Positions 28,790 through 46,979 of a stretch of 64,000 nt of DNA are shown in pieces. The first letter of the stretch is position 1, and every line of letters starts with the position of its first letter. A program made the position numbers and the translations under genes. The notes under the pieces are model-generated. The model was given only the letters and a program-made list of their open reading frames with translations. It did no database searches and was not told the DNA's origin. The DNA comes from a phage. The stretch lies in assembly GCA_014816185.1 (NCBI GenBank), contig GCA_014816185.1_4095.1; one strand, written 5' to 3'.

Positions 28790-29065
28790 GCAGTTTACAA
28801 ATCTTTACAATTGCCGGTATTGACTTATTTTGTCAGTACTGGCATAATGTATTCATTGGCAGATAAGCCGTAGCCCATAGGGTGCGGGAGTGTATCTATA
28901 GAAAAAGTAGTTTATTACAGTTACAATTGTGCACCCGGTGGGTTAGCTGTTGTCATGGGGTATATTATGCCAGTACTGGATAGTGCTGTCAATACCTTTT
29001 TACTATTCAGTACTGAAAACTATTTGATAAAAAGTACTTGCAAACTATGTTTAAAGGCGTATAAT

Positions 29066-31285: not shown

Positions 31286-31453
31286 CAACGCGGGGAGATA
31301 ATAACTCCCCGTTACTTTTTCAGTACTGAATCATTTAATAGACGGATATATGCACCCGGTGGGTTAGTGACTGTTTCGTCTTGATGTAGTAATTATGCCA
31401 GTACTGGATGCAGTTGTCAACAATTATTTTTCAAATACTTTTTATTAAAATAC

Positions 31454-32405: not shown

Positions 32406-32431
32406 AGCCCACCTGGTGGGCTTTTTTGTTT
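32406..32431 (+). terminator. intrinsic terminator
   Basis: GCCCA-cctgg-TGGGC followed by TTTTTTGTTTTT. Confidence 0.6.
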
Positions 32432-32632: not shown

Positions 32633-33115
32633 ATGGCTAATGTAAAATCATTCATCAAAGCACTGGTAGCAAATGAAACTAACGTCGCGGCTGAGATCCT
32701 GGCTGAACTGGATAACGATACCATGAAAGCGGTACGCAATAATTTTAACATCGCGTACAGTACTGCGAAAGAACTACAAGCAAATAAAGCGGCAGAAATT
32801 GAAGCGGCAAAGGCGGCCCGTGAAGCAGAACTACAAGCAACAATCGAAAGTATTCAGGCGGCAGTAGTTGGATTGGATCTGGAAGTAGTTACAGAGATGG
32901 CACAAAAAGCCCTGGCGGTTAAGTATGGGGAAGACAAGCCAGAAGTAAAAGCCAAAAAATGGATTCAGGAACGCGTAGCGGTAGTACTGGACAACGGGGA
33001 AGAATATCTGATTCCGGTGCGTGGTAACTGCATTGCGGTAGTACTGGATGCGATTAACTCCAGTGGTATGACTCGCGAGGAATGGATCGAAGCTCATCGC
33101 AAAGTTGAAGCATAA
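32633..33115 (+). CDS. hypothetical protein
   Basis: start MANVKSFIKA at 32633; Ala/Glu-rich helical middle. Confidence 0.5.
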   Translation: MANVKSFIKALVANETNVAAEILAELDNDTMKAVRNNFNIAYSTAKELQANKAAEIEAAKAAREAELQATIESIQAAVVGLDLEVVTEMAQKALAVKYGEDKPEVKAKKWIQERVAVVLDNGEEYLIPVRGNCIAVVLDAINSSGMTREEWIEAHRKVEA

Positions 33116-33136
33116 CAATTAAAGTACTGAATCACT

Positions 33137-33165
33137 AGCCCACTGTATAAGTGGGCTTTTTTGTG
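33137..33165 (+). terminator. intrinsic terminator
   Basis: AGCCCAC-tgtataa-GTGGGCT followed by TTTTTTGTG. Confidence 0.6.
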
Positions 33166-33924: not shown

Positions 33925-34068
33925 ATGAAAACTTGTCAATGTGGTCAGAAATCTATTACGGGTTTAAAGCGGGGCGTTGCACTTTGCCAGTACCATTATA
34001 ATTTACAAGTATGGGGTAAAGAATGGGCCGACCAGGTGGAAGCAGCAAAGAAAGAAAAAAGTAAGTAA
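33925..34068 (+). CDS. small Cys-containing protein (47 aa)
   Basis: MKTCQCGQKS..ALCQYHY; read from sequence. Confidence 0.35.
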   Translation: MKTCQCGQKSITGLKRGVALCQYHYNLQVWGKEWADQVEAAKKEKSK

Positions 34069-34087
34069 AAATATTATCACAGTACTA

Positions 34088-34116
34088 TTGACATAGTTTG
34101 ATAGTACTGGCATAAT
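34088..34116 (+). promoter_or_regulatory. early-type promoter TTGACA-17-CATAAT (copy 1 of 70-bp direct repeat)
   Basis: 34065-34135 nearly identical to 34359-34429, including the 3' codons of the preceding gene. Confidence 0.45.
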
Positions 34117-34149
34117 AGATTTTATCAAGACAACTAAGGGGAAACAATA

Positions 34150-34362
34150 ATGGCTATCATTACTAAAATCAAAGTTAACAAGACTATCGTTAAACTGGCA
34201 GAAGTGAAAGAAGGTTATAAAGTATCTTGGTGCGGTATGTATCGGACGTTCGCAGATATAGATGATGCAATCAATTACTACACTGACACGGTTAAAAACT
34301 TTGTTCGTGCTGATGTGGTTATGGCAGTGGCAACATATAAAGCAGCGAAAGAAAGTAAGTAA
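34150..34362 (+). CDS. hypothetical protein
   Basis: 70 aa MAIITKIKVNK. Confidence 0.5.
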   Translation: MAIITKIKVNKTIVKLAEVKEGYKVSWCGMYRTFADIDDAINYYTDTVKNFVRADVVMAVATYKAAKESK

Positions 34363-34381
34363 AAATATTATCACAGTACTA

Positions 34382-34410
34382 TTGACATAGTTTGATAGTA
34401 CTGGCATAAT
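34382..34410 (+). promoter_or_regulatory. early-type promoter TTGACA-17-CATAAT (copy 2 of direct repeat)
   Basis: TTGACA 34382-34387, CATAAT 34405-34410. Confidence 0.45.
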
Positions 34411-34453
34411 AGATTTTATCAAGACGACACATATTAATTTAAGGAATACTAAA

Positions 34454-36346: not shown

Positions 36347-36351
36347 AAAAA

Positions 36352-36445
36352 GTGGTTGACTCCGGTCAGCCATTTTGCTATTATATATTCATTGAGAGAT
36401 AGCTCACTAGCCCACAGGGTGCAGGAGTGTATCTATTGTATAATG
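36352..36445 (+). promoter_or_regulatory. composite element: UUCG-type hairpin/promoter + conserved CCCACAGGGTGCA segment
   Basis: related copies at 40379, 43645, 46399. Confidence 0.5.
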
Positions 36446-36488
36446 TTTGAGTACTGAAAACTATTTTAAAGTATTTGATAAAAAGTAC

Positions 36489-36548
36489 TTGCAAACTATC
36501 TCAATAGGCGTATAATGTTTTACATCGAAAGGGGAAACGGTTTCCCCT
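36489..36548 (+). promoter_or_regulatory. PeSL-like cassette
   Basis: TTGCAA 36489-36494, TATAAT 36511-36516, stem AGGGGAAA-cgg-TTTCCCCT. Confidence 0.55.
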
Positions 36549-36567
36549 GGTAATAAGGAAACAAATC

Positions 36568-36909
36568 ATGACTATTGCAATTGCTCAATCTAACTTTGAA
36601 AATGAAATCATCGCTCAGACACTGCGTTTAAGTGATGGTCGGGCCGAAATTAATTACGGTTTCAATTCAGGCGGTTGTGAAAAATATCAGTACTTTGTAA
36701 CGGCTGATGGCGGTGTCCTGGGTATCAATACAGTTATTGTAAACATCCAGAAAATTAATTTCAATGATCCAGACGATAGCCAGTTTTACATCACTGGCGT
36801 AGACGTGAACTATGAGGATGACTCACTAACTGATGACCACACTGGCGAGAAGTTAGAAAGTGCATACGGTGAAGATGATTATCAGTCCGGTCCAGAAGAT
36901 TTCGAATAA
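36568..36909 (+). CDS. hypothetical acidic protein
   Basis: 113-aa ORF. Confidence 0.5.
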   Translation: MTIAIAQSNFENEIIAQTLRLSDGRAEINYGFNSGGCEKYQYFVTADGGVLGINTVIVNIQKINFNDPDDSQFYITGVDVNYEDDSLTDDHTGEKLESAYGEDDYQSGPEDFE

Positions 36910-37004
36910 TATAAAAAAAATAGTTTGACAATAGATTATAGTACTGTATAATAGTTTACATCAAGGGGAGAAAAACTTCTCCCCACTAACAGAGAGAAAA
37001 CAAA

Positions 37005-37217
37005 ATGGCTAATATCCGGTCGAAATTAAAAAATGCAAAACAAGTTTTATTTTCAGATCATGAATACTTTAATAAAGATATTACAGGAGTTACAAGTATC
37101 AAGGAAGTAAAAGAAAAAACCGGCGTTTTGTGTGATGTGCGATTAGTTGGAACATTTGGGAATAACGTGCTATATCGCTGTGGTGATTACAATTTTACAC
37201 TGACTATCATTAACTAA
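37005..37217 (+). CDS. hypothetical protein
   Basis: 70-aa ORF. Confidence 0.45.
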   Translation: MANIRSKLKNAKQVLFSDHEYFNKDITGVTSIKEVKEKTGVLCDVRLVGTFGNNVLYRCGDYNFTLTIIN

Positions 37218-37310
37218 AAATATTATCACAGTACTATCAAAGCTATTGACAATGATTGATAGTACTGGCATAATAAGTTTTATCAACTACACTACTAAGG
37301 AATTAAAAAA

Positions 37311-37490
37311 ATGGCTATCATCGCAAAAACTGAAATCGTTGGTCTGGATTCTATCATCATGACGTTTGAAGATCAAAAAGGTATGTATGTAGTTTCCTAT
37401 GGTGATTATGTTCGGGAGTATGAAACGGTAGACGAAGCCTTTGAAAGTTACATTCGCCAGGTGAATAAAGCATACGACGATTACCGCTAA
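37311..37490 (+). CDS. small protein (59 aa), MAII-type
   Basis: MAIIAKTEIVG..; N-terminus like 33612 and 34150. Confidence 0.4.
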   Translation: MAIIAKTEIVGLDSIIMTFEDQKGMYVVSYGDYVREYETVDEAFESYIRQVNKAYDDYR

Positions 37491-37589
37491 AATATATTAC
37501 CAGTACTATTAAATATATTGACAACGTTTGATAGTACTGTATAATAAGTTTTATAAACAGTAGTTAACTTAACCTAAGAGAGAAACAAA

Positions 37590-37733
37590 ATGATCGCACT
37601 GGATTCATTCATCGACGCAGTACTGGCAAAAACTGGCGAGGATCTGACCGCAGAACAATACGCAATGATCGAGCAATGCCAGCAAGACGGTAAATCGGTG
37701 AAAGATACTGTTAAGATTATCCGCAAGATGTAA
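37590..37733 (+). CDS. small protein (47 aa)
   Basis: MIALDSFIDAVLAK.. after AGAGAGA RBS. Confidence 0.35.
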   Translation: MIALDSFIDAVLAKTGEDLTAEQYAMIEQCQQDGKSVKDTVKIIRKM

Positions 37734-37832
37734 GATTATAGCCCACTGGTTAACGCTGGTGGGCTTTAATTCATTACCCTATACAATGCCAGTACTAAAC
37801 CGTTTATCTCGTTAGAATGCGTTACAGGACGT

Positions 37833-38036
37833 TTGACAATGATTAGCATGAAATCAGTACAAAAACAAATAGAAACATTATCAAAAATTAAACGTAAACA
37901 GTACTCGTTAGAATATACAATCAATGGTAACTATCATCTAATGAAAGAGAATAATTTCATTGTCATTGATGAATCATTGCAAGTTATTAGTATAGTACTG
38001 AAAGCATTAATCAATGACAGAAAAAAATTAAAATAA
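37833..38036 (+). CDS. hypothetical protein
   Basis: 67-aa ORF. Confidence 0.4.
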   Translation: MTMISMKSVQKQIETLSKIKRKQYSLEYTINGNYHLMKENNFIVIDESLQVISIVLKALINDRKKLK

Positions 38037-38365
38037 TCTATTGACAATATCCTCCAGTACTGGCATAATACTTACATCAAGACGAGAACGTCACTAACCC
38101 ATAGGGTGCACAAATGTAACTATATAATATCGATCAATAAATGATCAAAAAAGTACTGGATTAATTTAGCATAAGGCGTATAATTCTGATCAATTCTTGA
38201 TCAAAGGCAATATACGCAGTTGAATTTATATAGACAGTACAAAGGCGTTACTATCCGTGGTAATGCTGATGGATATGTAGTATCATATGGTTTGAATAAG
38301 ATAAACACTAGTAGTATTATTGTAGCATTACAGTACTATAGTATTTTTATAATGAGGTTAAAATA

Positions 38366-38623
38366 ATGGCAGTAGGATACGCGAAAGACGGGGCCGAACA
38401 AGACGAGATTCACGCAGTGATTCAGGCCGCCGTTAACCACGCTAGAAAGCAAATTAACGCACAAAGAGAATCACTAGTACATTGCCTCGACTGCGGCGAT
38501 AAAATCCCTGAGAATCGACGCCAGGCCGTTATAGGGTGCATGTATTGTATTACTTGCCAGGAGGATCATGATAGTACTTTTAAAAGAGATCCGCGTAATT
38601 GTTGGCATAGATCTATGAGATAA
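38366..38623 (+). CDS. TraR/DksA-family C4 zinc-finger protein
   Basis: HCLDCGDKIPENRRQAVIGCMYCITCQ fits the C-x2-C ... I-P ... R ... C-x2-C DksA/TraR signature. Confidence 0.55.
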   Translation: MAVGYAKDGAEQDEIHAVIQAAVNHARKQINAQRESLVHCLDCGDKIPENRRQAVIGCMYCITCQEDHDSTFKRDPRNCWHRSMR

Positions 38624-38687
38624 AAAGTAATTGACAGTACTGAAAGATAGTGTATAATGTTTTATATCTTAACTGAGGATAGTAATC

Positions 38688-39044
38688 ATGGGAATACAAC
38701 ATATCACGCGTACTACTGACAATGGCGAGATCACTGGCTATCAAGTACAGGGCAAAGTAGCACAATTGCAGTACTGGTTTGTTAAACGTGGAATCATTGC
38801 ACCGGATCTTGATTATGACCGTGTAGCGTTTATTGATTCTCTTTATGTTGATCCTGATAGTCGGGGCAATGGTGAAGGTAACGAATTAATGAATGCCTTT
38901 ATCGATGCCGCCGATGATTCAGATTGTATCATCTTAGAATGCGATACGGGAGAAGATAACGCCTTTAATCTTAAAGAATGGTACGAAGGATTCGGATTCG
39001 AGGTACTGATCGATAGTGAATATCCTATCATGATTTTATCATAG
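38688..39044 (+). CDS. possible small GNAT-like acetyltransferase
   Basis: LYVDPDSRGNGEGNELMNAFIDAA resembles GNAT motif A (R-x-x-G-x-G); 118 aa. Confidence 0.35.
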   Translation: MGIQHITRTTDNGEITGYQVQGKVAQLQYWFVKRGIIAPDLDYDRVAFIDSLYVDPDSRGNGEGNELMNAFIDAADDSDCIILECDTGEDNAFNLKEWYEGFGFEVLIDSEYPIMILS

Positions 39045-39116
39045 TACTTGCAATTAGTTTTCAGTACTGTTATAGTACTTACATCAAGGGGAAACGTCTT
39101 CCCCTACTAAGAGGAA

Positions 39117-39311
39117 ATGAAAATGGAAAACTTATCAAGTATTTTAGTACAAGATGATTTCGGTAATCCTGGAAGTGCTATCATAGTTCGGGGCAATAAA
39201 GCAACGTTTGTTATTGCTGGTGGACCCGTACAGCGTAGCATTAAAAATAATGCTGTTACCATTAATAATGTACGCTATCGCTTAGATAAAGAATTGATTC
39301 ATAAACTGTAA
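39117..39311 (+). CDS. hypothetical protein
   Basis: 64-aa ORF. Confidence 0.45.
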   Translation: MKMENLSSILVQDDFGNPGSAIIVRGNKATFVIAGGPVQRSIKNNAVTINNVRYRLDKELIHKL

Positions 39312-39338
39312 TATTAATTTAATAGAGGATAACAATAA

Positions 39339-39662
39339 ATGTACATTCATACTACTATCACAAAGGAAGTCCGTTGCCAGTTCGAAAGTATTCCGGGCGT
39401 ATGTTTCATCACTGGTACGTTTTCCCCTGGTGATCGTGATAATCCAGTACTGTTACAGTTACGCCATCCATTATGGGATAAAGCATTTGATCTGCCGTTG
39501 AATGAATTCGCAACTACTGCTGAAAAGTACATTAAAAATATTCGCGAGAATGATCGACTATTCATTAATGCTTTTAGTGATGTCGCGTTAAGTGAGATCC
39601 ATGCTGTATTGGTTGCAATCATGGAATCAATGGAGAAAACTAAATTCAAACAAGGTGAATAA
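39339..39662 (+). CDS. hypothetical protein
   Basis: 107-aa ORF. Confidence 0.5.
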   Translation: MYIHTTITKEVRCQFESIPGVCFITGTFSPGDRDNPVLLQLRHPLWDKAFDLPLNEFATTAEKYIKNIRENDRLFINAFSDVALSEIHAVLVAIMESMEKTKFKQGE

Positions 39663-39745
39663 AAACTATTGACAAGATAATCTAGTACTGTATAATAGTT
39701 TACATGAAGGGGAGAAATGATTCTCCCCACTAAGAGGAAAGAAAA

Positions 39746-39958
39746 ATGCAAGGTCAACTAATCGTTCGTAAATGGTCTGATACTAACGAAAAACCGTGGG
39801 ATGTACAATACATCGCCCCAAATGGTGAATCCAGATATCAACCAGGTGTAACGCATAGTACTGAGCAATTCGCTGCCGCCCATCGTGAACGTCTGTTACA
39901 GTCAATGCAGCAAGGTTCCGGCGAAAAATTCATTCAGGATCATTGGCTGAAAGATTAA
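39746..39958 (+). CDS. hypothetical protein
   Basis: 70-aa ORF. Confidence 0.45.
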   Translation: MQGQLIVRKWSDTNEKPWDVQYIAPNGESRYQPGVTHSTEQFAAAHRERLLQSMQQGSGEKFIQDHWLKD

Positions 39959-40044
39959 AAAGTACTTGCACAGTACTGAATAAAGTGTATAATGTTTTAT
40001 ATCGAGAGGGGAATAGTTCCCCTCCTAACAAAAAGGAAAGTATA

Positions 40045-40218
40045 ATGATCCAAGTAGAATTATCAGTACTGAAAGATCTGTTTTATCGGTTAGGTACTAA
40101 TGGCGAGTATCCTAAAAGTGATACCGCAAAACTTTTTGTATCACTCGACTTATGGCAACGCGAACAATTAGTAATGTCCTGGCGTAAAGGTAAAGCAGAT
40201 CGCGAGGTGAAAGCATGA
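40045..40218 (+). CDS. small protein (57 aa)
   Basis: start MIQVELSVLKD at 40045 after PeSL and AAGGAAAG. Confidence 0.4.
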   Translation: MIQVELSVLKDLFYRLGTNGEYPKSDTAKLFVSLDLWQREQLVMSWRKGKADREVKA

Positions 40219-40364
40219 AAGAATTCTTATTCGAAGTAGTGTTTCAAGGTGTCGGTAGTAACCAACTGATTCGCTCAAGTGGTTACAATGTTAGCCAGGC
40301 ATGGAATAACATTAAACAAATGTACCCGAACGCCATCACCTATCGCAACCCGAAAGAAGTTTAA
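40215..40364 (+). CDS. small protein (49 aa)
   Basis: MKEFLFEVVFQGVG..; ATGA overlap. Confidence 0.35.
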   Translation: MKEFLFEVVFQGVGSNQLIRSSGYNVSQAWNNIKQMYPNAITYRNPKEV

Positions 40365-40378
40365 AAATAATTGAAAAA

Positions 40379-40465
40379 GGGATTGACTCCGGTCAGTCCC
40401 TTTGCTATTATATACGCATAGAAACAAATCAGCCCACAGGGTGCATAAATGTATCTATTATATGC
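40379..40465 (+). promoter_or_regulatory. composite element: UUCG hairpin / TTGACT-17-TATTAT promoter + conserved segment
   Basis: GGGATTGAC-TCCG-GTCAGTCCC; TTGACT 40383-40388, TATTAT 40406-40411. Confidence 0.5.
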
Positions 40466-40537
40466 TGGTGGCTAGTACTGAAAACTATTTTTAAAAAAGT
40501 ACTTGCATTGTACTTAGAATCAAGTATAATGTTTTAC

Positions 40538-40614
40538 ATCAGGACGGGGAACGAAACAAGTAACCCCGTTAAGTAGTCCAGGAGTAAGACATAAGAAAAC
40601 CTCCCCTGATAAAA
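40538..40614 (+). ncRNA. candidate small structured RNA / structured leader (copy 2)
   Basis: ~85% identical to 29066-29155; flanked by promoters (TATAAT 40525-40530 upstream; TTGACA 40619-40624 / TATAAT 40641-40646 downstream). Confidence 0.35.
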
Positions 40615-40678
40615 TAGTTTGACAATAGAAAGTAAAAGAGTATAATACTTACATCAACCACTGATAAGGAAACATAAA

Positions 40679-40954
40679 ATGCGGATTCTACTGACAGCTA
40701 ACGAAATCGAGCAAGTACTGACTACTAACCTGGAAGACTGGAAACGTGAAGCAGATATCCAGGCGGTTCAACAGCTTAACGATGAGTTAACGCCGGATGA
40801 CTTAAGCAAGATTGTAGATCCTCAATTCTACGAAGATATCCACGACACCGCGTTAAGCGTCGAGGATGTACTAGATAAGCACTACATTGATATTGATTTG
40901 CAGGTGTACGGTCGTAAAAACTTTATCACTATTCACGACATTTACAACAATTAA
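40679..40954 (+). CDS. hypothetical protein
   Basis: 91-aa acidic ORF. Confidence 0.5.
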   Translation: MRILLTANEIEQVLTTNLEDWKREADIQAVQQLNDELTPDDLSKIVDPQFYEDIHDTALSVEDVLDKHYIDIDLQVYGRKNFITIHDIYNN

Positions 40955-41039
40955 GTATTGACAAAGTATCTTAGTACTGTATAATAGTTTACATCGAGAG
41001 GGGAATGGTTCCCCTCCTAACTAAAAGAGAGAAATAAAA

Positions 41040-41222
41040 ATGGCTAAGTGCACTATCTGTAATAAAGAAATAGTATTAGTTCCAAGTGCCCGTGAACGTG
41101 CCGCTCGGTTCGGTGGCAAAGCGTCAGACTATACAAAAATGTTTACTGCCCATACAGCTTGCCAGGTAGCAAAACGTTCACAAGAAAGCGTAGAATTAAT
41201 GCGTAAACTTTCCAAAAAATAA
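41040..41222 (+). CDS. small Cys-containing protein
   Basis: MAKCTICNKEIV..TACQ; 60 aa. Confidence 0.45.
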   Translation: MAKCTICNKEIVLVPSARERAARFGGKASDYTKMFTAHTACQVAKRSQESVELMRKLSKK

Positions 41223-41310
41223 GTATTGACAAAGTATCTTAGTACTGTATAATAGTTTACATCAAGTGAGGGGAAACGGTTCCCCTCCTAACAAAGAGAG
41301 AGAAATAAAA

Positions 41311-41634
41311 ATGGCTATGATCCTTGCCCAGAAAGTAGAACTGAAAATTGTAACCTCCTTTGACATTAAAGTTAATCGGTGGACTGATTCACACGGCAAT
41401 ACTTACCACTCTTGCTACGTGTCTGCGTTAATTGGTGATCGTTGGGAAGACCTGGGACATGAAACCTTTACATACGGTTACGGCACACAAGGAGAATACA
41501 CGGGCTTGGAGATCATTAAAGAAACCGTTATAGGTTTCAACCCGAAAGAAAACGTTATTCACCGCATCGAGGAAGAGATCAACAAAGAAATAACAGTTCG
41601 ATACTACGATGTAAAACGTAAGAAAGATATGTAA
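41311..41634 (+). CDS. hypothetical protein (paralog of 34454..34777)
   Basis: start MAMILAQK; shared NTYHSC motif. Confidence 0.55.
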   Translation: MAMILAQKVELKIVTSFDIKVNRWTDSHGNTYHSCYVSALIGDRWEDLGHETFTYGYGTQGEYTGLEIIKETVIGFNPKENVIHRIEEEINKEITVRYYDVKRKKDM

Positions 41635-41729
41635 TAGAATCCATTTAAAGTACTATTTGACATTGCCCAGATAGTACTTTATAATAGACTCTAACTTGTA
41701 GTACTAACTTAACTAATAGGATGTATACC

Positions 41730-42125
41730 ATGATTACTAAATTCTACGCTACCCGTGAAGCTGCCCGTATTGTTGCACGCGAGGAAGGAGCAGCATTTAA
41801 AGACATGGGCAAAGATGCACCGAAAGGCCAACGCTGGGCCGTACAGTTCAAAGAAATCTCTGATATTGTGAATTCACCGGAGCCAGTACTAACAGCATCA
41901 GAACTAAAACGAGCGGATTTACTGGCGGCAGTACTTAACGCACAAGATGAATTTATCGCTGATTCTGATATCAAAGTACAGACAAACCATACCGCTTGGA
42001 CTCACGCGGATCACCTGGCAAACCTTAAGCGTCCAAGTGAACTGGTTCGCAACCAGAAAGAGATCCGACACGACCGTAAGGGTAATCGTGTAACAGTATA
42101 CAGTAAACGCCGCCAGGTTATCTAA
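41730..42125 (+). CDS. hypothetical protein (paralog of 28205..28471)
   Basis: start MITKFYATRE 9 nt after AGGA. Confidence 0.55.
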   Translation: MITKFYATREAARIVAREEGAAFKDMGKDAPKGQRWAVQFKEISDIVNSPEPVLTASELKRADLLAAVLNAQDEFIADSDIKVQTNHTAWTHADHLANLKRPSELVRNQKEIRHDRKGNRVTVYSKRRQVI

Positions 42126-42147
42126 TAACTTGCAGTACTAACAACAC

Positions 42148-42172
42148 GGCGGGATCAGTTCCCGCCTTTTTT
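42148..42172 (+). terminator. intrinsic terminator
   Basis: GGCGGGA-tcagt-TCCCGCC followed by TTTTTT. Confidence 0.55.
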
Positions 42173-42187
42173 ATAGGATAAACTAAA

Positions 42188-42442
42188 ATGATTAAGGTAC
42201 AACTATCTAAAGATAATATCTTGCGGGTACACTATAAAGCACCACAGAGAATCATCACAAAGGCCGTACAGCTTGCTAATGAGTTTATTAATGGTAACCT
42301 ATTACCAAGGAAGTTAAGCAACGGAAAACTGCGTGTAATCGATGTAGACACTAACAACAGAATAGTAATTGAGAACACAGGAAAGATAAACCTATATGAA
42401 CACCAACAATATAATAAGAAAATAAAACTAATATCACGTTGA
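42188..42442 (+). CDS. hypothetical protein
   Basis: 84-aa ORF. Confidence 0.45.
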   Translation: MIKVQLSKDNILRVHYKAPQRIITKAVQLANEFINGNLLPRKLSNGKLRVIDVDTNNRIVIENTGKINLYEHQQYNKKIKLISR

Positions 42443-42495
42443 CAGTACTCAATTGTTTTAGTATTATGTACACATACCAACACGGGAGAAACAAA

Positions 42496-42714
42496 ATGAA
42501 ATTATCTAAAATCGAAAAGAAAACTATTGATGAAGCAGTTAAGCACGGTTATACCTTTCGTAATGATTCACATTTTACCAATTTTCAACAAGGCCAAAGG
42601 ACTATTAAAAAACTAATTGACAAAGGTTTATTAGTTAAAGTAGATAACGGTAACGGCATTGAGTATCAGCCAACCCAAGACGCATTATCTTTAAAGAAAT
42701 ATGCAATTATCTAA
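42496..42714 (+). CDS. hypothetical protein
   Basis: start MKLSKIEKK; upstream promoter region duplicated before next gene. Confidence 0.45.
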   Translation: MKLSKIEKKTIDEAVKHGYTFRNDSHFTNFQQGQRTIKKLIDKGLLVKVDNGNGIEYQPTQDALSLKKYAII

Positions 42715-42771
42715 TTGACAGTACTCAAATGTTTTAGTACTATATGTACATACCAACACGGGGAAAACAAA

Positions 42772-43014
42772 ATGATTACTTTAGAAAAACGTATCAAAGA
42801 AACTACATCGCTGGTGGAACTGTTAACAGTACTGAAATGCCGTACTACTCGGTTTAGTACACCGGACTTTATTAATATGGTTGATGTTAACGGTCGTTAT
42901 CGCATTGCAGTAGAACATGGAACAGCGAAAGTATTCAGTACTAAAAACACTAAGGAAGTGATTCACGCGGTTAGTGTGAAAAAAGTGGTTGCCATTGATA
43001 GTAAAGTACTGTAA
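42772..43014 (+). CDS. hypothetical protein
   Basis: start MITLEKRIKE; same upstream promoter repeat as previous gene. Confidence 0.45.
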   Translation: MITLEKRIKETTSLVELLTVLKCRTTRFSTPDFINMVDVNGRYRIAVEHGTAKVFSTKNTKEVIHAVSVKKVVAIDSKVL

Positions 43015-43045
43015 GATAGTTTCATTAACTCAAGGAGAACATGCA

Positions 43046-43630
43046 ATGCGTAATTATACTAAATTCATCCGTACCCTGTCAGAAATGGAAACCAACAAAG
43101 AGATCCTTTCAGCTTGTCGGTTAGCTGGTCTGGAGATCATCGGTGCGGGTTCTTCCCGTATTGTATTCGCTTTAAATGTTCGGTTAGTGATTAAGGTCGC
43201 CAATTGTGATGCGGGTGTAGAACAAAATGAAACTGAATGTAAGGTATGGAATTTTTTAGACTATGACCGCCCTCAATTGAAACAGTACTTTGCAAAGGTG
43301 CATATGCATTTATGCGATCCTGATAATATGTTTATCGTTATGGATCGGTTGAGTACTGCAAGTAAAGGCAGTGTGAAGCACGTTAACGCGTGCAACGAAT
43401 TAAAGTACAATATTAAACGTAATGCCATTGAACGCCAGCACCGCTTTGCTGATGCACTACAACACGTCGATGATACATTATCAACACTAACGATAAGAGA
43501 TATCAGAAAACAGAATATCGGCCAGGATCGTAATGGACTTATTAAAGTACTTGATTACGGTTTAACCCGCAATATCTGGAATCAGTACTATAAAAAGCGT
43601 GATGTGGCAGCAAGTAAAGTAACACGATAA
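43046..43630 (+). CDS. minimal eukaryotic-like protein kinase (ePK-fold) candidate
   Basis: Gly-loop IIGAGSSRIVF, beta3 Lys in LVIKV, catalytic loop IRDIRKQN (RD..N spacing as in HRDLKPxN), IKVLDYG matching the DFG region; only ~195 aa so C-lobe truncated. Confidence 0.5.
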   Translation: MRNYTKFIRTLSEMETNKEILSACRLAGLEIIGAGSSRIVFALNVRLVIKVANCDAGVEQNETECKVWNFLDYDRPQLKQYFAKVHMHLCDPDNMFIVMDRLSTASKGSVKHVNACNELKYNIKRNAIERQHRFADALQHVDDTLSTLTIRDIRKQNIGQDRNGLIKVLDYGLTRNIWNQYYKKRDVAASKVTR

Positions 43631-43644
43631 AAAAGATTAAAAAA

Positions 43645-43735
43645 GGGATTGATTTCGGTCAGTCCCTTTGCTATTATATATTCATTGAGAGATAGCTCAC
43701 TGACCCACAGGGTGCATAAATGTATCTATTATATA
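43645..43735 (+). promoter_or_regulatory. composite element: UUCG hairpin/promoter + conserved segment
   Basis: GGGATTGAT-TTCG-GTCAGTCCC; downstream ATTCATTGAGAGATAGCTCACTGACCCACAGGGTGCA. Confidence 0.5.
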
Positions 43736-43852
43736 AGTATTCAGTACTGAAAACTATTTTTAAAAAGTACTTGCATTGTACTTAGAATCAAGTATAATGT
43801 TTTATATCGAGAGGGGGGGGAACGGTTCTCCCTGGCAATAAGGAATAAAATC

Positions 43853-44074
43853 ATGACTACAATGACTTGCATTTACGCTTCCAATCTTCTGAATGATGCG
43901 GCCTTTAATGTTGATTCAGAATATCAATGTTATCGGGATGAAAATAAAAAAGTTTTTGTAGTTGATAATAATGGTTTCCATATTGAATTACAATCCGGCT
44001 TCACTGGTGTTGATGGTAAATCAGTATGGGGCGTACAGGATGATAACGGTACATATCATTTTAAACGTAATTAA
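43853..44074 (+). CDS. hypothetical protein
   Basis: 73-aa ORF. Confidence 0.45.
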   Translation: MTTMTCIYASNLLNDAAFNVDSEYQCYRDENKKVFVVDNNGFHIELQSGFTGVDGKSVWGVQDDNGTYHFKRN

Positions 44075-44157
44075 GTATTGACAAAGTATATTAGTACTGT
44101 ATAATAGTTTACATCAAGGGGAGAACTATTCTCCCCGATACTAAAAGGAATAAAATC

Positions 44158-44565
44158 ATGACTACTACTAATCAAGCTCGGTCCATCGCCAACGATAAAA
44201 ATCATGCTGCAATGGTCGCTGGTTACATTGAAGCTATGCAATTCAGTACTGTACACAATGAGAACGGCGATTACCTGGAAGATTATGAATTATCAGAGCA
44301 AGCCCATCAAGCGGCAGTGATTGCATGTTCACGTTTCCTTGCTGTACATGGTGAAGATATGGAAACAGTACAAAAACACCATAATCCTGATTATACTTAT
44401 AGTCATGCAGGTCATGATCTATTTCTTACTCGCGAAGGTCACGGCACTGGTTTTTGGGATCGTGATATCGGTCACTATGATGATATATTCACTAAGTACT
44501 GCGAAGAAATCAACGTTTGCGATCCCTATGTAGGCGATGATAATTTAATCTATATGGGCGAATAA
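44158..44565 (+). CDS. hypothetical protein
   Basis: 135 aa; motif HAGHDLFLTREGHGTGFWDRD. Confidence 0.5.
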   Translation: MTTTNQARSIANDKNHAAMVAGYIEAMQFSTVHNENGDYLEDYELSEQAHQAAVIACSRFLAVHGEDMETVQKHHNPDYTYSHAGHDLFLTREGHGTGFWDRDIGHYDDIFTKYCEEINVCDPYVGDDNLIYMGE

Positions 44566-44652
44566 AAGTATTTGACAAAGCATATCAGTACTGTATAATA
44601 GTTTACATCAAGGGGAGAATAGTTCTCCCCGATACTAAAAGGAAACAAAATT

Positions 44653-44925
44653 ATGTCTAGCTACTCCGCTACTATGATCATTAAAGATATGAACGGTAAT
44701 CCTACTTCTGCTGGTGGATCATTTGGAAACATTAACTTAGATGGTCGGTTATCAATTGAATCAGCCATCAATGCAGCGAAAGAAGTTTTTAAGAATGAAT
44801 GTACTGTTAGTAAGCTGGATTATATGGGATTCGCTATCGAGAAAACTAATCGTTTTGTGAACTACAAAAATCCACTGATGATTGATACTAACCTGAAAGC
44901 TAACGAAGTGGAATACTTATTATGA
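44653..44925 (+). CDS. hypothetical protein
   Basis: 90-aa ORF. Confidence 0.45.
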   Translation: MSSYSATMIIKDMNGNPTSAGGSFGNINLDGRLSIESAINAAKEVFKNECTVSKLDYMGFAIEKTNRFVNYKNPLMIDTNLKANEVEYLL

Positions 44926-45113
44926 CAGTTGAAGAAGTTAAAAAAGTACTGGCAGTACTACGCTATCATAACCATTGCAAGGTTAAGAATGATCCTGATT
45001 ATGTTGATTCATCCCTGGAGGAAGACACATTAAACGCAATAAGCCATATGCAAACATTAGCAAAGCGTATGACCGAAAAGAATAGACCGGACTATATCGG
45101 AAATAAAATTTAA
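44922..45113 (+). CDS. hypothetical protein
   Basis: 63 aa; ATGA coupling. Confidence 0.4.
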   Translation: MTVEEVKKVLAVLRYHNHCKVKNDPDYVDSSLEEDTLNAISHMQTLAKRMTEKNRPDYIGNKI

Positions 45114-45199
45114 AAAGTACTTGCATTGTAGTTAGATTAACGTATAATGTTTTACATAGAGCGGGGGAATAGTTCTCCCGCCAGTCCGGGAGATACACC

Positions 45200-45463
45200 A
45201 TGAACACTATCGAAATCACTATCAATGCACACGTATACGACAACGTAGTACTGCAAACTACTATGACCGCTAATGATACCAGTACTTTGCGGAATACCGT
45301 TGTAAGTGCTGTATGTGCTGCAATCGGTGATGTAGCCCTGGAAAATGCAAAACACGTAAACGATGGTTTCACTATGTGCAAACGTGATAACGCAAAACAT
45401 ATCATCGTAGAAGGTTACGGCGGTGTAGAATTTAATGTTTATTTGAAAAAAGTACTTGCATAA
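45200..45463 (+). CDS. hypothetical protein
   Basis: 87-aa ORF. Confidence 0.45.
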   Translation: MNTIEITINAHVYDNVVLQTTMTANDTSTLRNTVVSAVCAAIGDVALENAKHVNDGFTMCKRDNAKHIIVEGYGGVEFNVYLKKVLA

Positions 45464-45530
45464 TAACTAAAACAAAGTATAATGTTTTGCATAGGGGGAG
45501 ATATCCTCCCCCACTAAAAGGAGTACTAAA

Positions 45531-45755
45531 ATGGCTAACTTTGATGAACTGATGCGGGAAGTAGCTAACCTGGCAGAAGAGAAGAAATCATTCGATTCTA
45601 TCTATAACACCGCTCACCGTGATTCAGTACTGTCATGTACTCAGGATCAAAAAGATGAACTAATCGCCACATATCATGAAGCATGGAAGTACTACCGCCA
45701 ATGGGAGAAAGAAGAAAGTGAGTCTATCATTGACGGCCTCAATAATCTAATCTAA
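45531..45755 (+). CDS. hypothetical protein
   Basis: 74-aa ORF. Confidence 0.45.
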   Translation: MANFDELMREVANLAEEKKSFDSIYNTAHRDSVLSCTQDQKDELIATYHEAWKYYRQWEKEESESIIDGLNNLI

Positions 45756-45830
45756 AGTTTTATTTCAGTACTATTGACATAGCTTGATAGTACTGATGTA
45801 ATAACTTTACTAACTACAAGGGGAAACATA

Positions 45831-46088
45831 ATGGAACAGTTCACACAATATCGGGTAAATCCTCAAGCTATGGCCTACGTAGAAGACCATAAAACGTTAC
45901 CAGTACTGCAACCAGTTAAAGGCCATATCTATCGTGCAATGTCGTGGAGTACGGCCCAGGATGGCTATAAAACCGTAGCTGTCGGTATGTACTGCGGTAA
46001 TGGTGAATGGTTTGATCCAAATAATCCGGTCGCCGTTGACAGTACTGAAAAAATGAAATGGGCCGACTACATCGAAGATATTTCATAA
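45831..46088 (+). CDS. hypothetical protein
   Basis: 85-aa ORF. Confidence 0.45.
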   Translation: MEQFTQYRVNPQAMAYVEDHKTLPVLQPVKGHIYRAMSWSTAQDGYKTVAVGMYCGNGEWFDPNNPVAVDSTEKMKWADYIEDIS

Positions 46089-46178
46089 AAACTATTTGAC
46101 AGTACTAACCAGTAATGTATAATGTTTTACATCGAGCGGGGGAATAGTTCTCCCGTCAATAGTTTGGAGTAAAACATT

Positions 46179-46379
46179 ATGTCTATCGCTATCGCCCTGG
46201 TCGAAGTACTGAAAGAAGCTAAAGCCAACCTTATCGATGTACAGATTAAGGAATTGCAAAACGGCTTAATCGGCTGTACTTGTACCGCTGGTGGAGCGGC
46301 AGACTATCGGGAATTCGAATCACTTGAATCGATGGTCCGGTATCTTACAATCATCGTAGAAGATTGGAGAATCATCTAA
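46179..46379 (+). CDS. hypothetical protein
   Basis: 66-aa ORF. Confidence 0.45.
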   Translation: MSIAIALVEVLKEAKANLIDVQIKELQNGLIGCTCTAGGAADYREFESLESMVRYLTIIVEDWRII

Positions 46380-46398
46380 CAAAAAAGAATAAAAAAAA

Positions 46399-46480
46399 GG
46401 GATTGACTCCGGTCAGTCCCTTTGCTATTATATACGCATAGACAAAAACTAGCCCACAGGGTGCATAAGTGTATCCAAAA
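46399..46480 (+). promoter_or_regulatory. composite element: UUCG hairpin/promoter + conserved segment
   Basis: GGGATTGAC-TCCG-GTCAGTCCC; CCCACAGGGTGCATAAGTGTATC downstream. Confidence 0.5.
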
Positions 46481-46646
46481 TATATAGTTAATAACGGTGA
46501 GTAACTATCTGCTGGTGGATGTACTGCCAGTACTCAAGGGAACTAAAACTATTAATAAAAAGTATTGACAAAGTATATCAGTACTGCAATAATGTATCTC
46601 GTAGGGCGGCAATGGTGCGACGGTCCACAAAGTTAGGAGATTCAAA

Positions 46647-46979
46647 ATGAGTACTTCAATCGCTATCGTTAAAGCTTTCATCCGTACCAATGTTTCATCT
46701 GTATTCATCGACGGTCTGGATCGGGAAGTAGAATACTCAATCATTATCGCACAGACTGCAAACGGTGCTCGGTATATCCTTAATGATAGTGAAGCAAATC
46801 ACTACTACTTCACTAAAGCTACTGGCTTTAAACGCATCGATGCTGACGTAGTATACGCTAAGATGAATAAGCTGGTAGACAAGATTAACGCGAAAGGTAC
46901 TATCGATTTACAGTACTGGACCGAAACCGATCCAGAATATGGTTCTCACCGCTATCTGAATCCAGGTATTAAAATGTAA
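46647..46979 (+). CDS. hypothetical protein
   Basis: 110-aa ORF. Confidence 0.5.
   Translation: MSTSIAIVKAFIRTNVSSVFIDGLDREVEYSIIIAQTANGARYILNDSEANHYYFTKATGFKRIDADVVYAKMNKLVDKINAKGTIDLQYWTETDPEYGSHRYLNPGIKM

Follow-up and report, generated by a model that had tools for sequence, protein, structure and literature searches.

The 64,000-nucleotide stretch of phage DNA considered here (the window) contains four composite repeats, with hairpins at 36352, 40379, 43645 and 46399, each of which joins two modules: a hairpin fused to a promoter and, just downstream, a predicted short non-coding RNA. As judged from its conserved core and predicted structure, this RNA recurs across RaK2-like giant enterobacterial phages and matches no described RNA family. 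The reading that we favor, with a probability of about one half, is that the second module represents a family of immediate-early small RNA genes, in places used as 5′ leaders, whose invariant hairpin would be a protein-recognition site; both transcription and function we infer from the DNA. With 92-97% identity to Ecwhy_1, PBECO4 and related phages, the window comes, at the level of sequence, from an Asteriusvirus-like (PBECO4/121Q) jumbo coliphage. The original observation of the four repeats is confirmed, and its interpretation, in which they are copies of one element that combines a hairpin, a promoter and a conserved segment, is partly supported.

All four hairpins are found where they had been reported. 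When the window is scanned systematically for hairpins with a TTGAC -35 box as left arm, exactly six are obtained, with starts at 1250, 2663, 36349, 40376, 43642 and 46396, and the first two recover the simpler hairpin/promoter combinations previously assigned to 1252 and 2667. The hairpins at 40379 and 46399 both read exactly GGGATTGAC-TCCG-GTCAGTCCC; the one at 43645 differs from this by two mismatches and has the loop TTCG, no such match being expected by chance, and the one at 36352 is degenerate (GTGGTTGAC-TCCG-GTCAGCCAT). Folding energies range from -16 to -21 kcal/mol with z-scores from -4 to -6, and the hairpins are flagged as terminator-like, with an A-tract and a U-tract on their flanks. 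In the composite repeats, all on the plus strand, the stem-loop starts 3-17 nt past an upstream stop codon and overlaps an extended -10 promoter scoring 10 of 12. The first hairpin, AAAGTGGTTGAC-TCCG-GTCAGCCATTTT (36349-36376), starts 3 nt after the ORF end at 36346, still folds with -16.9 kcal/mol (z -5.0) and uses its 5′ arm as the -35 box of a predicted sigma-70 promoter, TTGACT-17-TATTAT with TG extension, at 36356-36384. The second (40376-40403, -21 kcal/mol) follows the ORF end at 40364 and carries the same promoter, again with TG extension, at 40383-40411, so that the promoter originally proposed is matched in both copies. The same layout can be read from the sequence in the other two: the third hairpin (43642-43669, loop TTCG, ORF end 43630) has a TTGATT -35 box and the promoter TTGATT-17-TATTAT at 43649-43677, in the register of the other copies, and the fourth (46396-46423, ORF end 46379) has TTGACT-17-TATTAT at 46403-46431. 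The hairpins at 1250-1275 (loop TTCG) and 2663-2690, also on the plus strand, are followed by TATAAT and lead straight to a ribosome binding site and a gene, with no RNA module. The earlier suggestion that the element stops upstream transcripts and starts new ones agrees with every in-silico test run (stem strength, A- and U-tracts, stop-codon spacing, promoter overlap). By these features the first module is a PeSL-type fusion of a predicted terminator and a sigma-70 promoter.

PeSLs are promoter-early stem-loop cassettes of T4-type phages (Arbiol et al. 2010, PMC2839356; Comeau et al. 2014, PMC4122927), and their stem-loops often lie between or over the promoter boxes (PMC2839356, PMC4122927). 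The fusions in the window share with them this placement, the joining of a terminator stem-loop to a strong early promoter that is sigma-70-like and AT-rich upstream, the intergenic location in many repeats among small ORFans of a plastic early region, and the indel breakpoints of close relatives at the repeats. They differ in that here the stem provides the -35 box with its 5′ arm and the terminator U-tract serves as promoter spacer, that four copies carry a conserved non-coding RNA module instead of a Shine-Dalgarno sequence and an ORF, a cargo not described for PeSLs, and that the phages are RaK2-like jumbo phages, only distantly related to T4.

The RNA module is about 58 nt long and promoter-proximal, and consists of a 5′ hairpin (P1), a mini-hairpin (P2, RCCC-AYN-GGGU) and a wobble-rich helix (P3, GGGUGC/GYRUCY) that overlaps P2. 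Its 12-base core, CCCAYNGGGTGC, is nearly invariant. The conserved segment reported behind the hairpin is borne out, in that the core CCCACAGGGTGCA is exact in all four composite copies; with up to two mismatches it has 10 matches in the window against 0.49 expected. A covariance model finds 11 modules in the window, four of them on the minus strand, and the original list had overlooked 38098 and two near 26794 and 27010. The words described as related, near 26940, 28875, 28925 and 31355, do recur, but they are full further modules with their own promoters, several on the minus strand, rather than mere words.

The composite copies alternate between two sequence types. The module at 36387-36444 (67.2 bits) has P1 UGAG/CUCA, its core at 36411-36422 (CCCACAGGGTGC) and P3 extending to 36434, and is followed by AGTACTG (36450-36456), a PeSL promoter region (36467-36537) and an ORF (36568-36909); similar to it is 43680-43737 (69 bits, core 43704-43715), followed by AGTACTG (43743-43749), a PeSL region (43749-43819) and an ORF (43853-44074). 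The other type belongs to a short class that lacks P1, and comprises 40414-40466 (39.2 bits, core 40433-40444), with Chi (40464-40471), AGTACTG (40474-40480) and a PeSL region (40481-40551) downstream, and 46434-46486 (45.4 bits, core 46453-46464), with Chi (46511-46518), a promoter (46563-46598) and an ORF (46647-46979). The second PeSL promoter that had been proposed after the conserved segment is thus present in the first three copies, but in the fourth a TTGACA-type promoter comes about 100 nt on, and not a TTGCA-type PeSL. Outside the composite repeats, the plus-strand module at 38074-38131 (55.3 bits) has a plain promoter, TTGACA-17-CATAAT (38041-38069), and lies upstream of a small ORF and of DksA/TraR-type zinc-finger and GNAT genes. 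A stand-alone minus-strand copy at 31330-31387 (57.4 bits, promoter 31420-31392) ends at a bidirectional terminator (31311-31291). The copies at 28851-28907 (plus, 55.9 bits, promoter 28820-28848) and 28909-28955 (minus, 32 bits, promoter 28992-28964) form a convergent pair. The module at 26761-26818 (minus, 50.8 bits) marks the left edge of the early region. A degenerate copy at 26910-26974 (plus, 16.9 bits, E 0.019) has lost CCCAYN but keeps P3 (26946-26965), which, with the TTTTT that follows, takes the shape of an intrinsic terminator, and convergent with it is a diverged copy, CCCCAGGGGGTGG, at 26976-27033 (minus, 27.3 bits, promoter 27065-27038).

When the covariance model is run on the window together with stretches of RaK2, GAP32, CBB, 121Q, fHe-Yen9-04 and related contigs, 76 copies are found, a number that is a lower bound (at least 76) for the RaK2-like phages. 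Depending on the test, the counts given below refer to 76, 74, 73 or 69 (distinct) copies. The module is present in all five named phages, and therefore in phages of Klebsiella, Cronobacter, Pectobacterium, Escherichia and Yersinia, and the relatives carry the module region at the left end of the genome or in the terminal repeat. Nothing in Rfam matches it at the gathering or the E-value threshold, the motif turns up neither in the literature nor in 5,426 E. coli genomes, and a scan of 185,579 bacterial and archaeal species, one genome each, with its strict form yields a single chance hit.

The sequence changes among copies indicate selection on structure. In P1, all four pairs are changed on both sides, 93.8% of cells are paired, the helix includes G.U pairs, and the model-fitted alignment of 76 copies contains 99 compensatory cells; in an alignment-free test, matched 5′ and 3′ halves fold with -4.42 kcal/mol, compared to -2.13 kcal/mol for mismatched halves (permutation p ≤ 1e-4). 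The covariation score of the whole structure is reached by none of 500 shuffles, a statistic that overstates the significance because related copies are not independent observations. P2 is paired in 98.5% of cells and closes with G.U in 33 copies and with A-U in 31; its loop has 3 or 4 nt (AYN, UAUA). Two copies, each from a different phage, combine a rare C-to-U with a rare G-to-A change (CCUACAAGG, CCUUAUAAGG). In P3, 91% of cells are paired, versus 23-62% with the partner shifted along the sequence; variation on the free strand is confined to changes that preserve the pair (U-A 47, U.G 22; G.U 52, G-C 16), and a loop-closing C-to-G change in four copies meets a C on the opposite side in three of them. 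The support for P2 and P3 comes mostly from one-sided changes, since one strand is invariant, and double changes number only two in P2 and three in P3.

The modules are also tightly linked to promoters. A promoter with at least 10 of 12 consensus positions precedes the module at a fixed distance in 64 of 73 copies (88%), compared to 3.5% of random positions, with 20-22 nt from the end of the -10 box to CCC in the short class and 25-29 nt in the long class, and a TGn extension is present in 47 of the 73. The PeSL-type hairpin accompanies the module in only 16 of 74 copies and also occurs alone, as seen above, which dissolves the idea of an indivisible element. About a third of the copies (~26 of 74) stand in tail-to-tail convergent pairs, a strong intrinsic terminator follows at least 12 of 74, and the four minus-strand modules of the window lie inside an array of plus-strand genes. 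The four composite copies have no terminator of their own and continue into the next promoter and gene, and therefore fit a cis-acting leader as well as a gene. It had been left open whether the conserved middle is a protein-binding site or a short RNA; an RNA is favored by the compensatory variation in P1 and P2, the G.U-compatible changes in P3, the fixed promoter distance and the terminators that many copies possess.

To see how such a unit might work, consider one of the composite repeats. A stem-loop of 9-12 bp, with a UCCG or UUCG loop and flanking A- and U-tracts, sits directly behind the upstream gene's stop codon and would stop incoming transcripts. Its 5′ arm doubles as the -35 box, TTGAC(T), and its U-tract as the spacer, of a sigma-70 promoter with extended -10, from which host RNA polymerase would make a short non-coding RNA immediately after infection. 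The transcript would start at CAT, about 7 nt past the -10 box, and open with the 5′-terminal hairpin P1, which is free in sequence; a P1-like hairpin seems to begin most early transcripts of this phage. Then would come the near-invariant P2, R-CCC-AYN-GGG-U, whose 3′ half (GGGUGC) could alternatively pair with GYRUCY 6 nt downstream to form P3, often with an AGUACUG box next. The unit could end in three ways: at a U-run or its own terminator, at a convergent partner, or at the next early promoter. The invariant hairpin would be recognized by a conserved protein, of host or phage, and the many strongly promoted copies would supply a high dose of this recognition site, perhaps acting in trans. 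Neither a complementary target nor a partner protein turned up, and the 64-kb window has no antisense match to the core except in convergent partners.

A different use of the same anatomy, possible but rather unlikely in our estimate, is a cis-acting attenuator or antiterminator, in which P3 with a U-rich tail terminates or pauses transcription and a protein bound to P2 decides read-through into early genes. P2 and P3 share G48-U50 and are therefore mutually exclusive, and the predicted ensembles split accordingly into 49 P2-like and 16 P3-like of 69 copies. Some 30 copies are followed by an early promoter and a gene, one (L023:12598) is a direct 5′ UTR with the ribosome binding site 12 nt past the module, each composite copy opens a gene block of 3-4 kb just past a terminator, and in one case a module has kept the same gene beside it in phages of Escherichia, Klebsiella and Yersinia. 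However, roughly half of the copies are without a gene that they could regulate, being convergent, terminated within about 40 nt, or on the minus strand in plus-strand arrays, and the downstream genes are mutually unrelated ORFans of many families with promoters of their own. P3 itself is weak and G.U-rich, and although the P3 at 26946-26965 is flagged as terminator-like, the tails are mostly UAUA-like: a U-run (at least 5 U in the next 8 nt) directly follows in only 9 of 74 copies. Nor is there a boxA, or a loop resembling that of boxB.

It is improbable that the 12-mer acts as double-stranded or non-template DNA, be it as an operator or roadblock for shut-off some 15-45 bp past strong early promoters or as a loading site for an elongation factor, on the model of the lambda Q binding element or the RfaH ops site. 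The core is nearly invariant and not merely covarying, which could mean that it is recognized as double-stranded DNA; it stands at a fixed distance from the promoter, CCC...GGG forms a short palindrome, and other words are enriched near promoters in the phage (AGTACT occurs 282 times against 22 expected). Yet the closing position, A or G opposite an invariant U, pairs in RNA and makes no palindrome in DNA, the CCU...AGG double change hits both half-sites, the loop length varies, the only changes on the free strand of P3 are wobble-compatible transitions, in contrast to the freely varying loop-side position, and P1, a part of the same module, clearly evolves as an RNA helix. Just as improbable is that the repeats are recombination linkers or remnants of duplicated cassettes, with no RNA function of their own. 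Modular shuffling by PeSLs is documented in T4-type phages (PMC2839356, PMC4122927), indel breakpoints relative to PBECO4 fall at repeated early promoters, a 224-bp PBECO4 insertion at 40481-40483 comes directly after a module, and the two alternating types (36387/43680 and 40414/46434) would fit duplication. But the breakpoints are at PeSL promoters and not in the module, the core is kept across phage genera with diverged flanks, P1 stems and neighboring genes, homology for recombination would require neither a fixed core nor a fixed distance, and the compensatory changes speak for structural selection. Very improbable, finally, are a mini-ORF, with GGGUG as Shine-Dalgarno sequence and an NUG start, and a second promoter, in which the 12-mer would be an activator box and TATNNT the -10. 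AUG, GUG or UUG stands 5 nt after GGGUG in 37 of 69 distinct copies, but the other 32 have AUC, GUC or other triplets there, and the frames, which share no conserved feature, vary in length from a start codon with a stop right behind it to over 20 codons. P3 is mostly followed by TAT, but A2 and T6 of the -10 hexamer are present together in only 28 of 69, and such a promoter would be senseless in convergent or immediately terminated copies.

The logic of a cis-acting leader resembles that of known systems. Lambda nut (boxA-boxB) and HK022 put are promoter-proximal RNA elements that modify RNA polymerase, and like the module they are short structured RNAs just downstream of strong early promoters. 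Both lambda boxB and P2 are small hairpins of conserved sequence with a G/C stem, GCCCU/AGGGC in boxB and RCCC/GGGU here. The nut loop, however, is a GNRA-like pentaloop whereas that of P2 has 3-4 nt, nut includes a boxA, there are two nut sites but at least 11 modules per genome, and half of the modules have no downstream operon; no N-like or Nun-like partner was identified for the module. In RAT/terminator antitermination leaders, of the BglG/SacY/LicT type, a conserved protein-binding hairpin likewise overlaps a helix further downstream, on the 5′ strand of the latter, and such an overlap would account for P3 having one invariant strand and one free to vary. The module differs from them in that P3 is a real terminator, stem and U-run, in a minority of copies only, in that many copies lack a downstream gene, and in having no sequence relation to RAT (no match in Rfam).

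The favored reading, that of small RNA genes, also has its parallels. PA5oct, a jumbo Pseudomonas phage, has two single-copy non-coding RNAs of 236-451 nt, ncRNA001 and ncRNA002, which are highly expressed by RNA-seq, at 2-5% of phage reads (Lood et al. 2020, PMC7318152). They too lie in the terminal-repeat/early region of a phage of the same wider clade, but have no sequence or structure in common with the multi-copy module, and the covariance model has no match in the first 40 kb of PA5oct. Trans-acting small RNAs of bacteria and phages with an intrinsic terminator are a further class for comparison. The present family differs from these in being multi-copy, with at least 11 genes per genome, in lacking a complementary target in the window, and in the predicted pairing of the conserved segment itself. 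It resembles them in that each unit has its own promoter, in the order of a 5′ hairpin and a conserved middle segment, in the 3′ hairpin and U-tail of a subset, and in a length of about 55-100 nt.

The composite feature is real and non-random. Its four copies are present at 36352, 40379, 43645 and 46399, where the original prediction placed them, and can be aligned with each other over about 130 nt. The 22-nt hairpin is identical at 40379 and 46399 and carries two changes at 43645, when the number expected by chance is 0, and the hairpin at 36352 is a diverged version that has retained its folding. The promoter that was proposed to overlap the hairpin, TTGACT-17-TATTAT with a TG extension, is borne out. 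When the window is scanned systematically for stems of 8 bp or more with TTGAY inside the 5' arm, hairpins with an embedded -35 box come up at all six predicted sites (1250, 2663, 36349, 40376, 43642 and 46396), together with four further matches that are weak and unrelated.

The stems have 9-12 bp, with RNA folding energies from -16 to -21 kcal/mol and z-scores from -4 to -6 in relation to shuffled sequences, and A-tracts upstream of the hairpins are predicted to pair with U-tracts downstream of them. The hairpins of the four copies begin 3-17 nt past the stop codons of ORFs that end at 36346, 40364, 43630 and 46379, and a scan for the shape of intrinsic terminators reports three of the four; from folding, they are predicted to be able to terminate transcription that arrives from upstream. 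The -35 box is the 5' arm of the stem, the U-tract plus GC makes up the 17-nt spacer of the promoter, and an A-run precedes the promoter. From this location of the -35 box and the U-tract it follows that an upstream transcript holds the entire hairpin, while a transcript started here holds none of it. A hairpin with the -35 box as one of its arms is a very compact terminator-plus-promoter part. A like design, GGGGTTGAC-TTCG-GTYRGCCCC, is present in phages RaK2, GAP32 and CBB, and one such hairpin in GAP32 was annotated by its authors as a stem-loop with a terminator predictor.

Escherichia phages of about 350 kb, among them Ecwhy_1, WPEC3, fEgEco12 and PBECO4, share 92-97% identity with the stretch from 36.3 to 40.6 kb. 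They belong to Asteriusvirus, a RaK2-like group of jumbo phages, and the annotation of the corresponding stretch in their records consists of small hypothetical proteins only. Jumbo phages of the RaK2 group have hundreds of unannotated early genes. Between about 27 and 49 kb, the window is a plus-strand array of tiny genes. Upstream of nearly every gene stands an early promoter of a repeated type, AAAAGTACTTGCA-N16-TATAAT (family D1, 20 copies), and then a transcribed stem-loop and an RBS; this is the family that the original prediction named the PeSL promoter. In the relatives, the homologous region lies at the start of the record or within a terminal repeat determined with PhageTerm, and the early region with its modules would probably enter the cell with the first of the phage DNA.

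Promoter-early stem-loop (PeSL) cassettes have been described in T4-type phages, with the stem-loop mostly between or over the promoter boxes (PMC2839356, PMC4122927). The hairpin/promoter has the same location, an early promoter of the sigma-70 type behind an A/T-rich region and, in silico, a stable stem-loop beside or over the promoter that could terminate upstream transcription. PeSL cassettes also end, on their 3' side, in a Shine-Dalgarno sequence and the first codon of an ORFan. This holds at 1250 and 2663, where an RBS and a gene come immediately after the hairpin/promoter, while the four composite copies have a non-coding module instead. When the window is compared with PBECO4 (locus L027), the sole relative compared, the breakpoints of indels and replacements within 27.8-47.9 kb lie at 27.8, 30.75-30.97, 33.36-33.60, 33.93-34.14, 35.70-35.88, 38.64-39.06 (a GNAT gene that PBECO4 lacks), 40.48 (where PBECO4 has an insertion of 224 bp) and 44.17-44.57 kb. 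They coincide with TTGCA-type repeated early promoters, which is the pattern that PeSL-mediated shuffling predicts, and only one of them, at 40481-40483, adjoins a composite copy. From the fit to the published description it follows that the hairpin/promoter belongs with the PeSL cassettes, as a compact variant of this known regulatory kind. It extends the PeSL idea past the classical T4-type phages and could serve synthetic biology.

The conserved segment that follows the promoter, here called the RNA module (about 58 nt, with the stretch CCCACAGGGUGCAUAAAUGUAUC), is a separate family, much larger than the hairpin/promoter composites. Its core, CCCACAGGGTGCA, has four exact occurrences, and 10 sites match it with at most two mismatches when 0.49 are expected. 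A covariance model built from 20 copies finds 11 in the window, all between 26.7 and 46.5 kb. Seven are on the plus strand, at 26910-26974 (weak), 28851-28907, 36387-36444, 38074-38131, 40414-40466, 43680-43737 and 46434-46486, and four on the minus strand, at 26761-26818, 26976-27033, 28909-28955 and 31330-31387. Related words had been predicted to recur outside the composites, and so they do, but the model copies at these sites mean that they are complete modules, several of them on the opposite strand. In 190 kb made up of the window and related loci, the model finds 76 copies. When IMG/VR is scanned with the pattern CCCAYNGGGTGC-N5-TGTAWC, the matches are, besides a few chance ones in coding DNA, confined to contigs of about 345-378 kb, namely Klebsiella phage RaK2, Cronobacter phage GAP32, Pectobacterium phage CBB, Yersinia phage fHe-Yen9-04, 121Q and related, uncultivated contigs. 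The core is identical in phages of five host genera, and the module, absent from annotation and from Rfam, thus spans phages whose hosts belong to five or more genera of enterobacteria.

Three helices can be drawn in the module: a 5' hairpin (P1), a small hairpin R-CCC-AYN-GGG-U (P2) and a helix of GGGUGC with GYRUCY 6 nt downstream (P3). P1 has 3-5 bp and is found at a common position, 2-4 nt from the predicted 5' end, in 41 of 57 copies, with at least 12 different stem sequences; copies of the short class, among them those at 40414 and 46434, have only an A-rich stretch in its place. RNAalifold on a MAFFT alignment recovered P2 alone, because the position of P1 shifts by 1-3 nt between copies, and P1 was therefore tested in three ways. 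In an ungapped subset of copies in the same register, all four pairs are changed on both sides and 93.8% of the cells are paired, with a whole-structure covariation score that is reached by none of 500 shuffles. The model-fitted alignment of the 76 copies contains 99 compensatory cells in P1. When no alignment is used, matched halves pair with -4.42 kcal/mol and halves from different copies with -2.13 kcal/mol (p <= 1e-4).

P2, with a loop of 3 or 4 nt, is paired to 98.5%, and 33 copies close it with G.U and 31 with A-U. A rare change of the third C to U is accompanied by a rare change of the first G to A in two copies, each from a different phage, and these double changes were seen among copies that had not been pre-selected by motif. 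P3 is paired to 91%, compared with 23-62% in slid controls. Its free strand shows only changes that preserve pairing (U-A in 47 and U.G in 22 copies, G.U in 52 and G-C in 16, G-C in 63 and G.U in 6); the position on the loop side varies freely, and a change there from C to G is met by an opposite C in three of four copies. P2 and P3 have three or four nucleotides in common and are mutually exclusive; predicted ensembles of 69 copies favour P2 in 49 and P3 in 16. Several minimum-energy folds gave the idea of a long-range helix, in which the P1 loop or 5' strand (AGAUA, GGCAGAU) pairs with UAUCU or GUCUGUC after P3, and it was rejected since matched and mismatched duplexes have alike energies (-5.69 and -5.62 kcal/mol, p = 0.40). 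AGTAC occurs 6-18 nt after P3 in two-thirds of the copies, against a background of 30%.

A near-consensus promoter stands at a fixed distance before the core in all contigs that bear the pattern. A match of at least 10/12 to TTGACA-N16-18-TATAAT precedes 64 of 73 distinct copies (88%), compared with 3.5% of random positions in the same loci, and 47 of the 73 have a TGn extension. The distance from the end of the -10 box to CCC is 25-29 nt in the long class and 20-22 nt in the short class. With the usual promoter geometry, transcription would start about 7 nt past the -10 box, at a conserved CAT, and the first nucleotide of the core would lie near +14 to +22.

What follows the module was surveyed for 74 distinct copies. 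About half are convergent or immediately terminated. Some 26 are paired in convergent orientation, tail to tail, with model ends 2, 13 or 20 nt apart, and the wider pairs have the central palindrome GCGAATGAnnATCATTCGC in common. A strong GC-rich terminator lies within about 25-40 nt downstream of at least 12 copies, the minus-strand copy at 31330-31387 ends at a bidirectional terminator at 31291-31311, and a U-run directly after P3 is seen in nine copies, in the window at 26946-26965. In about 30 copies, the four composite ones included, the next early promoter and a gene come after the module; a single copy serves as a direct 5' UTR, and 16 have a hairpin-embedded -35 box. The downstream genes fall into 26 unrelated groups, one of which, with four members, is conserved across genera, as a pairing of module and gene in Escherichia, Klebsiella and Yersinia phages. 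No Pfam domain was found in the genes after the four composite copies.

In the pairs with gaps of 13 and 20 nt, the common central palindrome can be written GCGAATGA-nn-ATCATTCGC; in loci of related phages it lies at L002:8083-8103, L006:1281-1301, L007:339-359, L023:6093-6106 and similar places, and it could be a site for a protein or a bidirectional terminator hairpin that serves both copies. Immediately after the module at 38074-38131 come genes for a DksA/TraR-type C4 zinc-finger protein (38366-38623, 85 aa) and for the GNAT acetyltransferase that PBECO4 lacks (38688-39044, 118 aa).

That the composite joins a terminator/promoter to a structured promoter-proximal RNA module is very probable. 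The reading of the whole that we prefer, with a probability of about one half, is that the modules are a family of immediate-early small RNA genes, in which the invariant hairpin is a protein-recognition site. The transcription unit would then consist of a very good promoter, a protective 5'-terminal hairpin of free sequence, a small hairpin of invariant sequence and, in many copies, an end of its own, and in places, including the four composite copies, a module ahead of a gene would be the 5' end of a longer transcript. Copies on the opposite strand and convergent pairs cannot lead anything, and are therefore read as small RNA genes. The core is invariant where a plain helix would covary, which points to recognition by a protein, and the invariant strand of P3 is explained by its being part of this presumed site. 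The main rival is a cis-acting switch, where P2 competes with P3 as a terminator. Such a switch, which would organise early transcription, accounts for the overlap between P2 and P3 and for the copies ahead of genes, but leaves unexplained the half of the family with nothing downstream, and a cis-regulator of one gene family is rejected by the diversity of the 26 downstream groups. Recognition of the core as DNA is a weaker alternative, since the G.U pairs, the alternation of A and G opposite U and the compensatory changes indicate selection on RNA rather than on duplex DNA. Weaker, too, is the proposal that the modules are pure recombination linkers, since the breakpoints relative to PBECO4 lie at the PeSL promoters rather than in the module, and a mini-ORF or a second promoter at the conserved segment is rejected because neither a start codon nor the key positions of a -10 box are conserved.

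If the modules are small RNA genes, the large number of copies with strong promoters suggests that dose is important, as it is for a titrating or decoy RNA. A tentative and rather unlikely extension is that, in the first minutes, RaK2-like jumbo phages swamp the cell with a small decoy RNA in a dozen or more copies. The invariant RCCC-AYN-GGGU(GC) hairpin would then capture one conserved protein, and the candidates are an early protein of the phage or a factor of the host that acts in RNA binding, transcription or defence. If true, phages would have an RNA-based means of host takeover or anti-defence that is not yet described for them; as decoy or regulator, the RNA would point to a host or phage protein that is important in the first minutes of infection. 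The module itself is a concrete object, defined by its coordinates, by a structure model and by a covariance model, and it is conserved, multi-copy, strongly promoted and non-coding.

Among known RNA families, Rfam 15 gave no match in the whole window at the gathering threshold and no match overlapping a module at E <= 5 within 26000-47500, and ARAGORN found 0 tRNA or tmRNA genes in the window. The phage lambda nut boxB has a 5-bp stem and a GNRA-like pentaloop, while P2 has a stem of 3-4 bp and a loop of 3-4 nt (AYN, UAUA, UAGA); boxA is lacking, the sequence upstream of P2 being the variable 3' strand of P1 and a YNAR linker; and nut sites stand at the head of operons with read-through terminators, in contrast to the convergent or immediately terminated half of the modules. 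The put RNA of HK022, with two stems in about 70 nt just past the promoter and acting in cis on the polymerase, would be compatible in position and size. In RAT/terminator leaders, a hairpin that binds a protein overlaps the 5' strand of an intrinsic terminator; P2 and P3 overlap, the U-run after P3 is limited to 9 of 74 copies, and no Rfam match connects the module to the RAT family. Terminator-bearing, trans-acting sRNAs have a promoter and an intrinsic terminator of their own; a promoter is nearly always present at the module, at least 12 copies, and none of the four composite ones, have their own terminator, and convergent pairs have the shared central hairpin. As for complementary targets of a conserved seed, antisense matches to the core in the window, with up to two mismatches, are convergent partners only.

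An RNA anti-CRISPR, i.e., a solitary mimic of the host's CRISPR repeat, is rejected, as is host origin or mimicry, by the lack of similarity to the module in 5,426 complete E. coli genomes; the former is also contradicted by one and the same core in phages of five host genera. The related phage PA5oct has highly expressed ncRNAs in its terminal repeat (PMC7318152), and homology to these is rejected because the module was not found in the first 40 kb of PA5oct. With one genome per bacterial or archaeal species, the strict motif gave only a chance match, in a Parcubacteria terminator, and the searchable literature held nothing relevant, with the motif string in unrelated papers only. Partial resemblances to a segment of 16S rRNA helix 18 (AGGGUGCA), to the anticodon stem of tRNA-Thr (ACCC/GGGU) and to a CsrA site (ACAGGAUG) are taken by us to be coincidences. 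The RNA module is an undescribed, clade-wide, multi-copy early RNA module.

A sub-threshold Rfam match to the Trp operon leader at 33100-33164 (29.9 bits with a gathering threshold of 41, E 0.016) is probably the terminator hairpin at 33137-33157. This and another strong plus-strand terminator, at 32406-32422, have stems of the form AGCCCAC.../...GTGGGCT, and thereby the 7-mer AGCCCAC in common with the module core.

The word AGTACT occurs 282 times in the window, when about 22 are expected, and most densely at 20-48 kb; CAGTACTG occurs 63 times (0.7 expected) and TCAGTACTGA 15 times. In many early promoters (CAGTACTGGCATAAT, AGTACTGTATAAT), AGTACT directly precedes the TGn -10 box, and free palindromic boxes with AGTACT, TTCAGTACTGAA, are found after the RNA module and at a distance of about 25 nt before the next -35 box. 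A dimeric regulator may have its operator in AGTACT. Chi of E. coli, GCTGGTGG, is present nine times on the plus strand, eight of them within 26-47 kb, and five times as its complement, when 0.2 are expected. There is an inverted pair, CCACCAGCTTGTGCTGGTGG, at 26270-26289, Chi follows directly after two of the four composite modules (40464-40471 and 46511-46518), and in relatives CCACCAGC is found within promoter spacers.

Other repeats in the window include an 80-nt promoter region that is duplicated at 34055-34134 and 34349-34428 (98% identity, 294 nt apart, family D15), about 10 paralogous units of about 1.2 kb with common 5' ends on the minus strand at 8.6-20.5 kb (families D3-D5), and about 12 small paralogous genes with the common segment TAGGAACAAACTATCA on the plus strand at 48.3-53.7 kb (families D10, D12 and D14). 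At about 26420-26600, a tandem array with a period of 8 bp and units such as TGGACGGC, TAGACGTT and TGGATGGC separates the minus-strand gene block from the early plus-strand block; it may be a genome-end, packaging or origin feature, and the records of several GenBank relatives start close to window position 27.2 kb.
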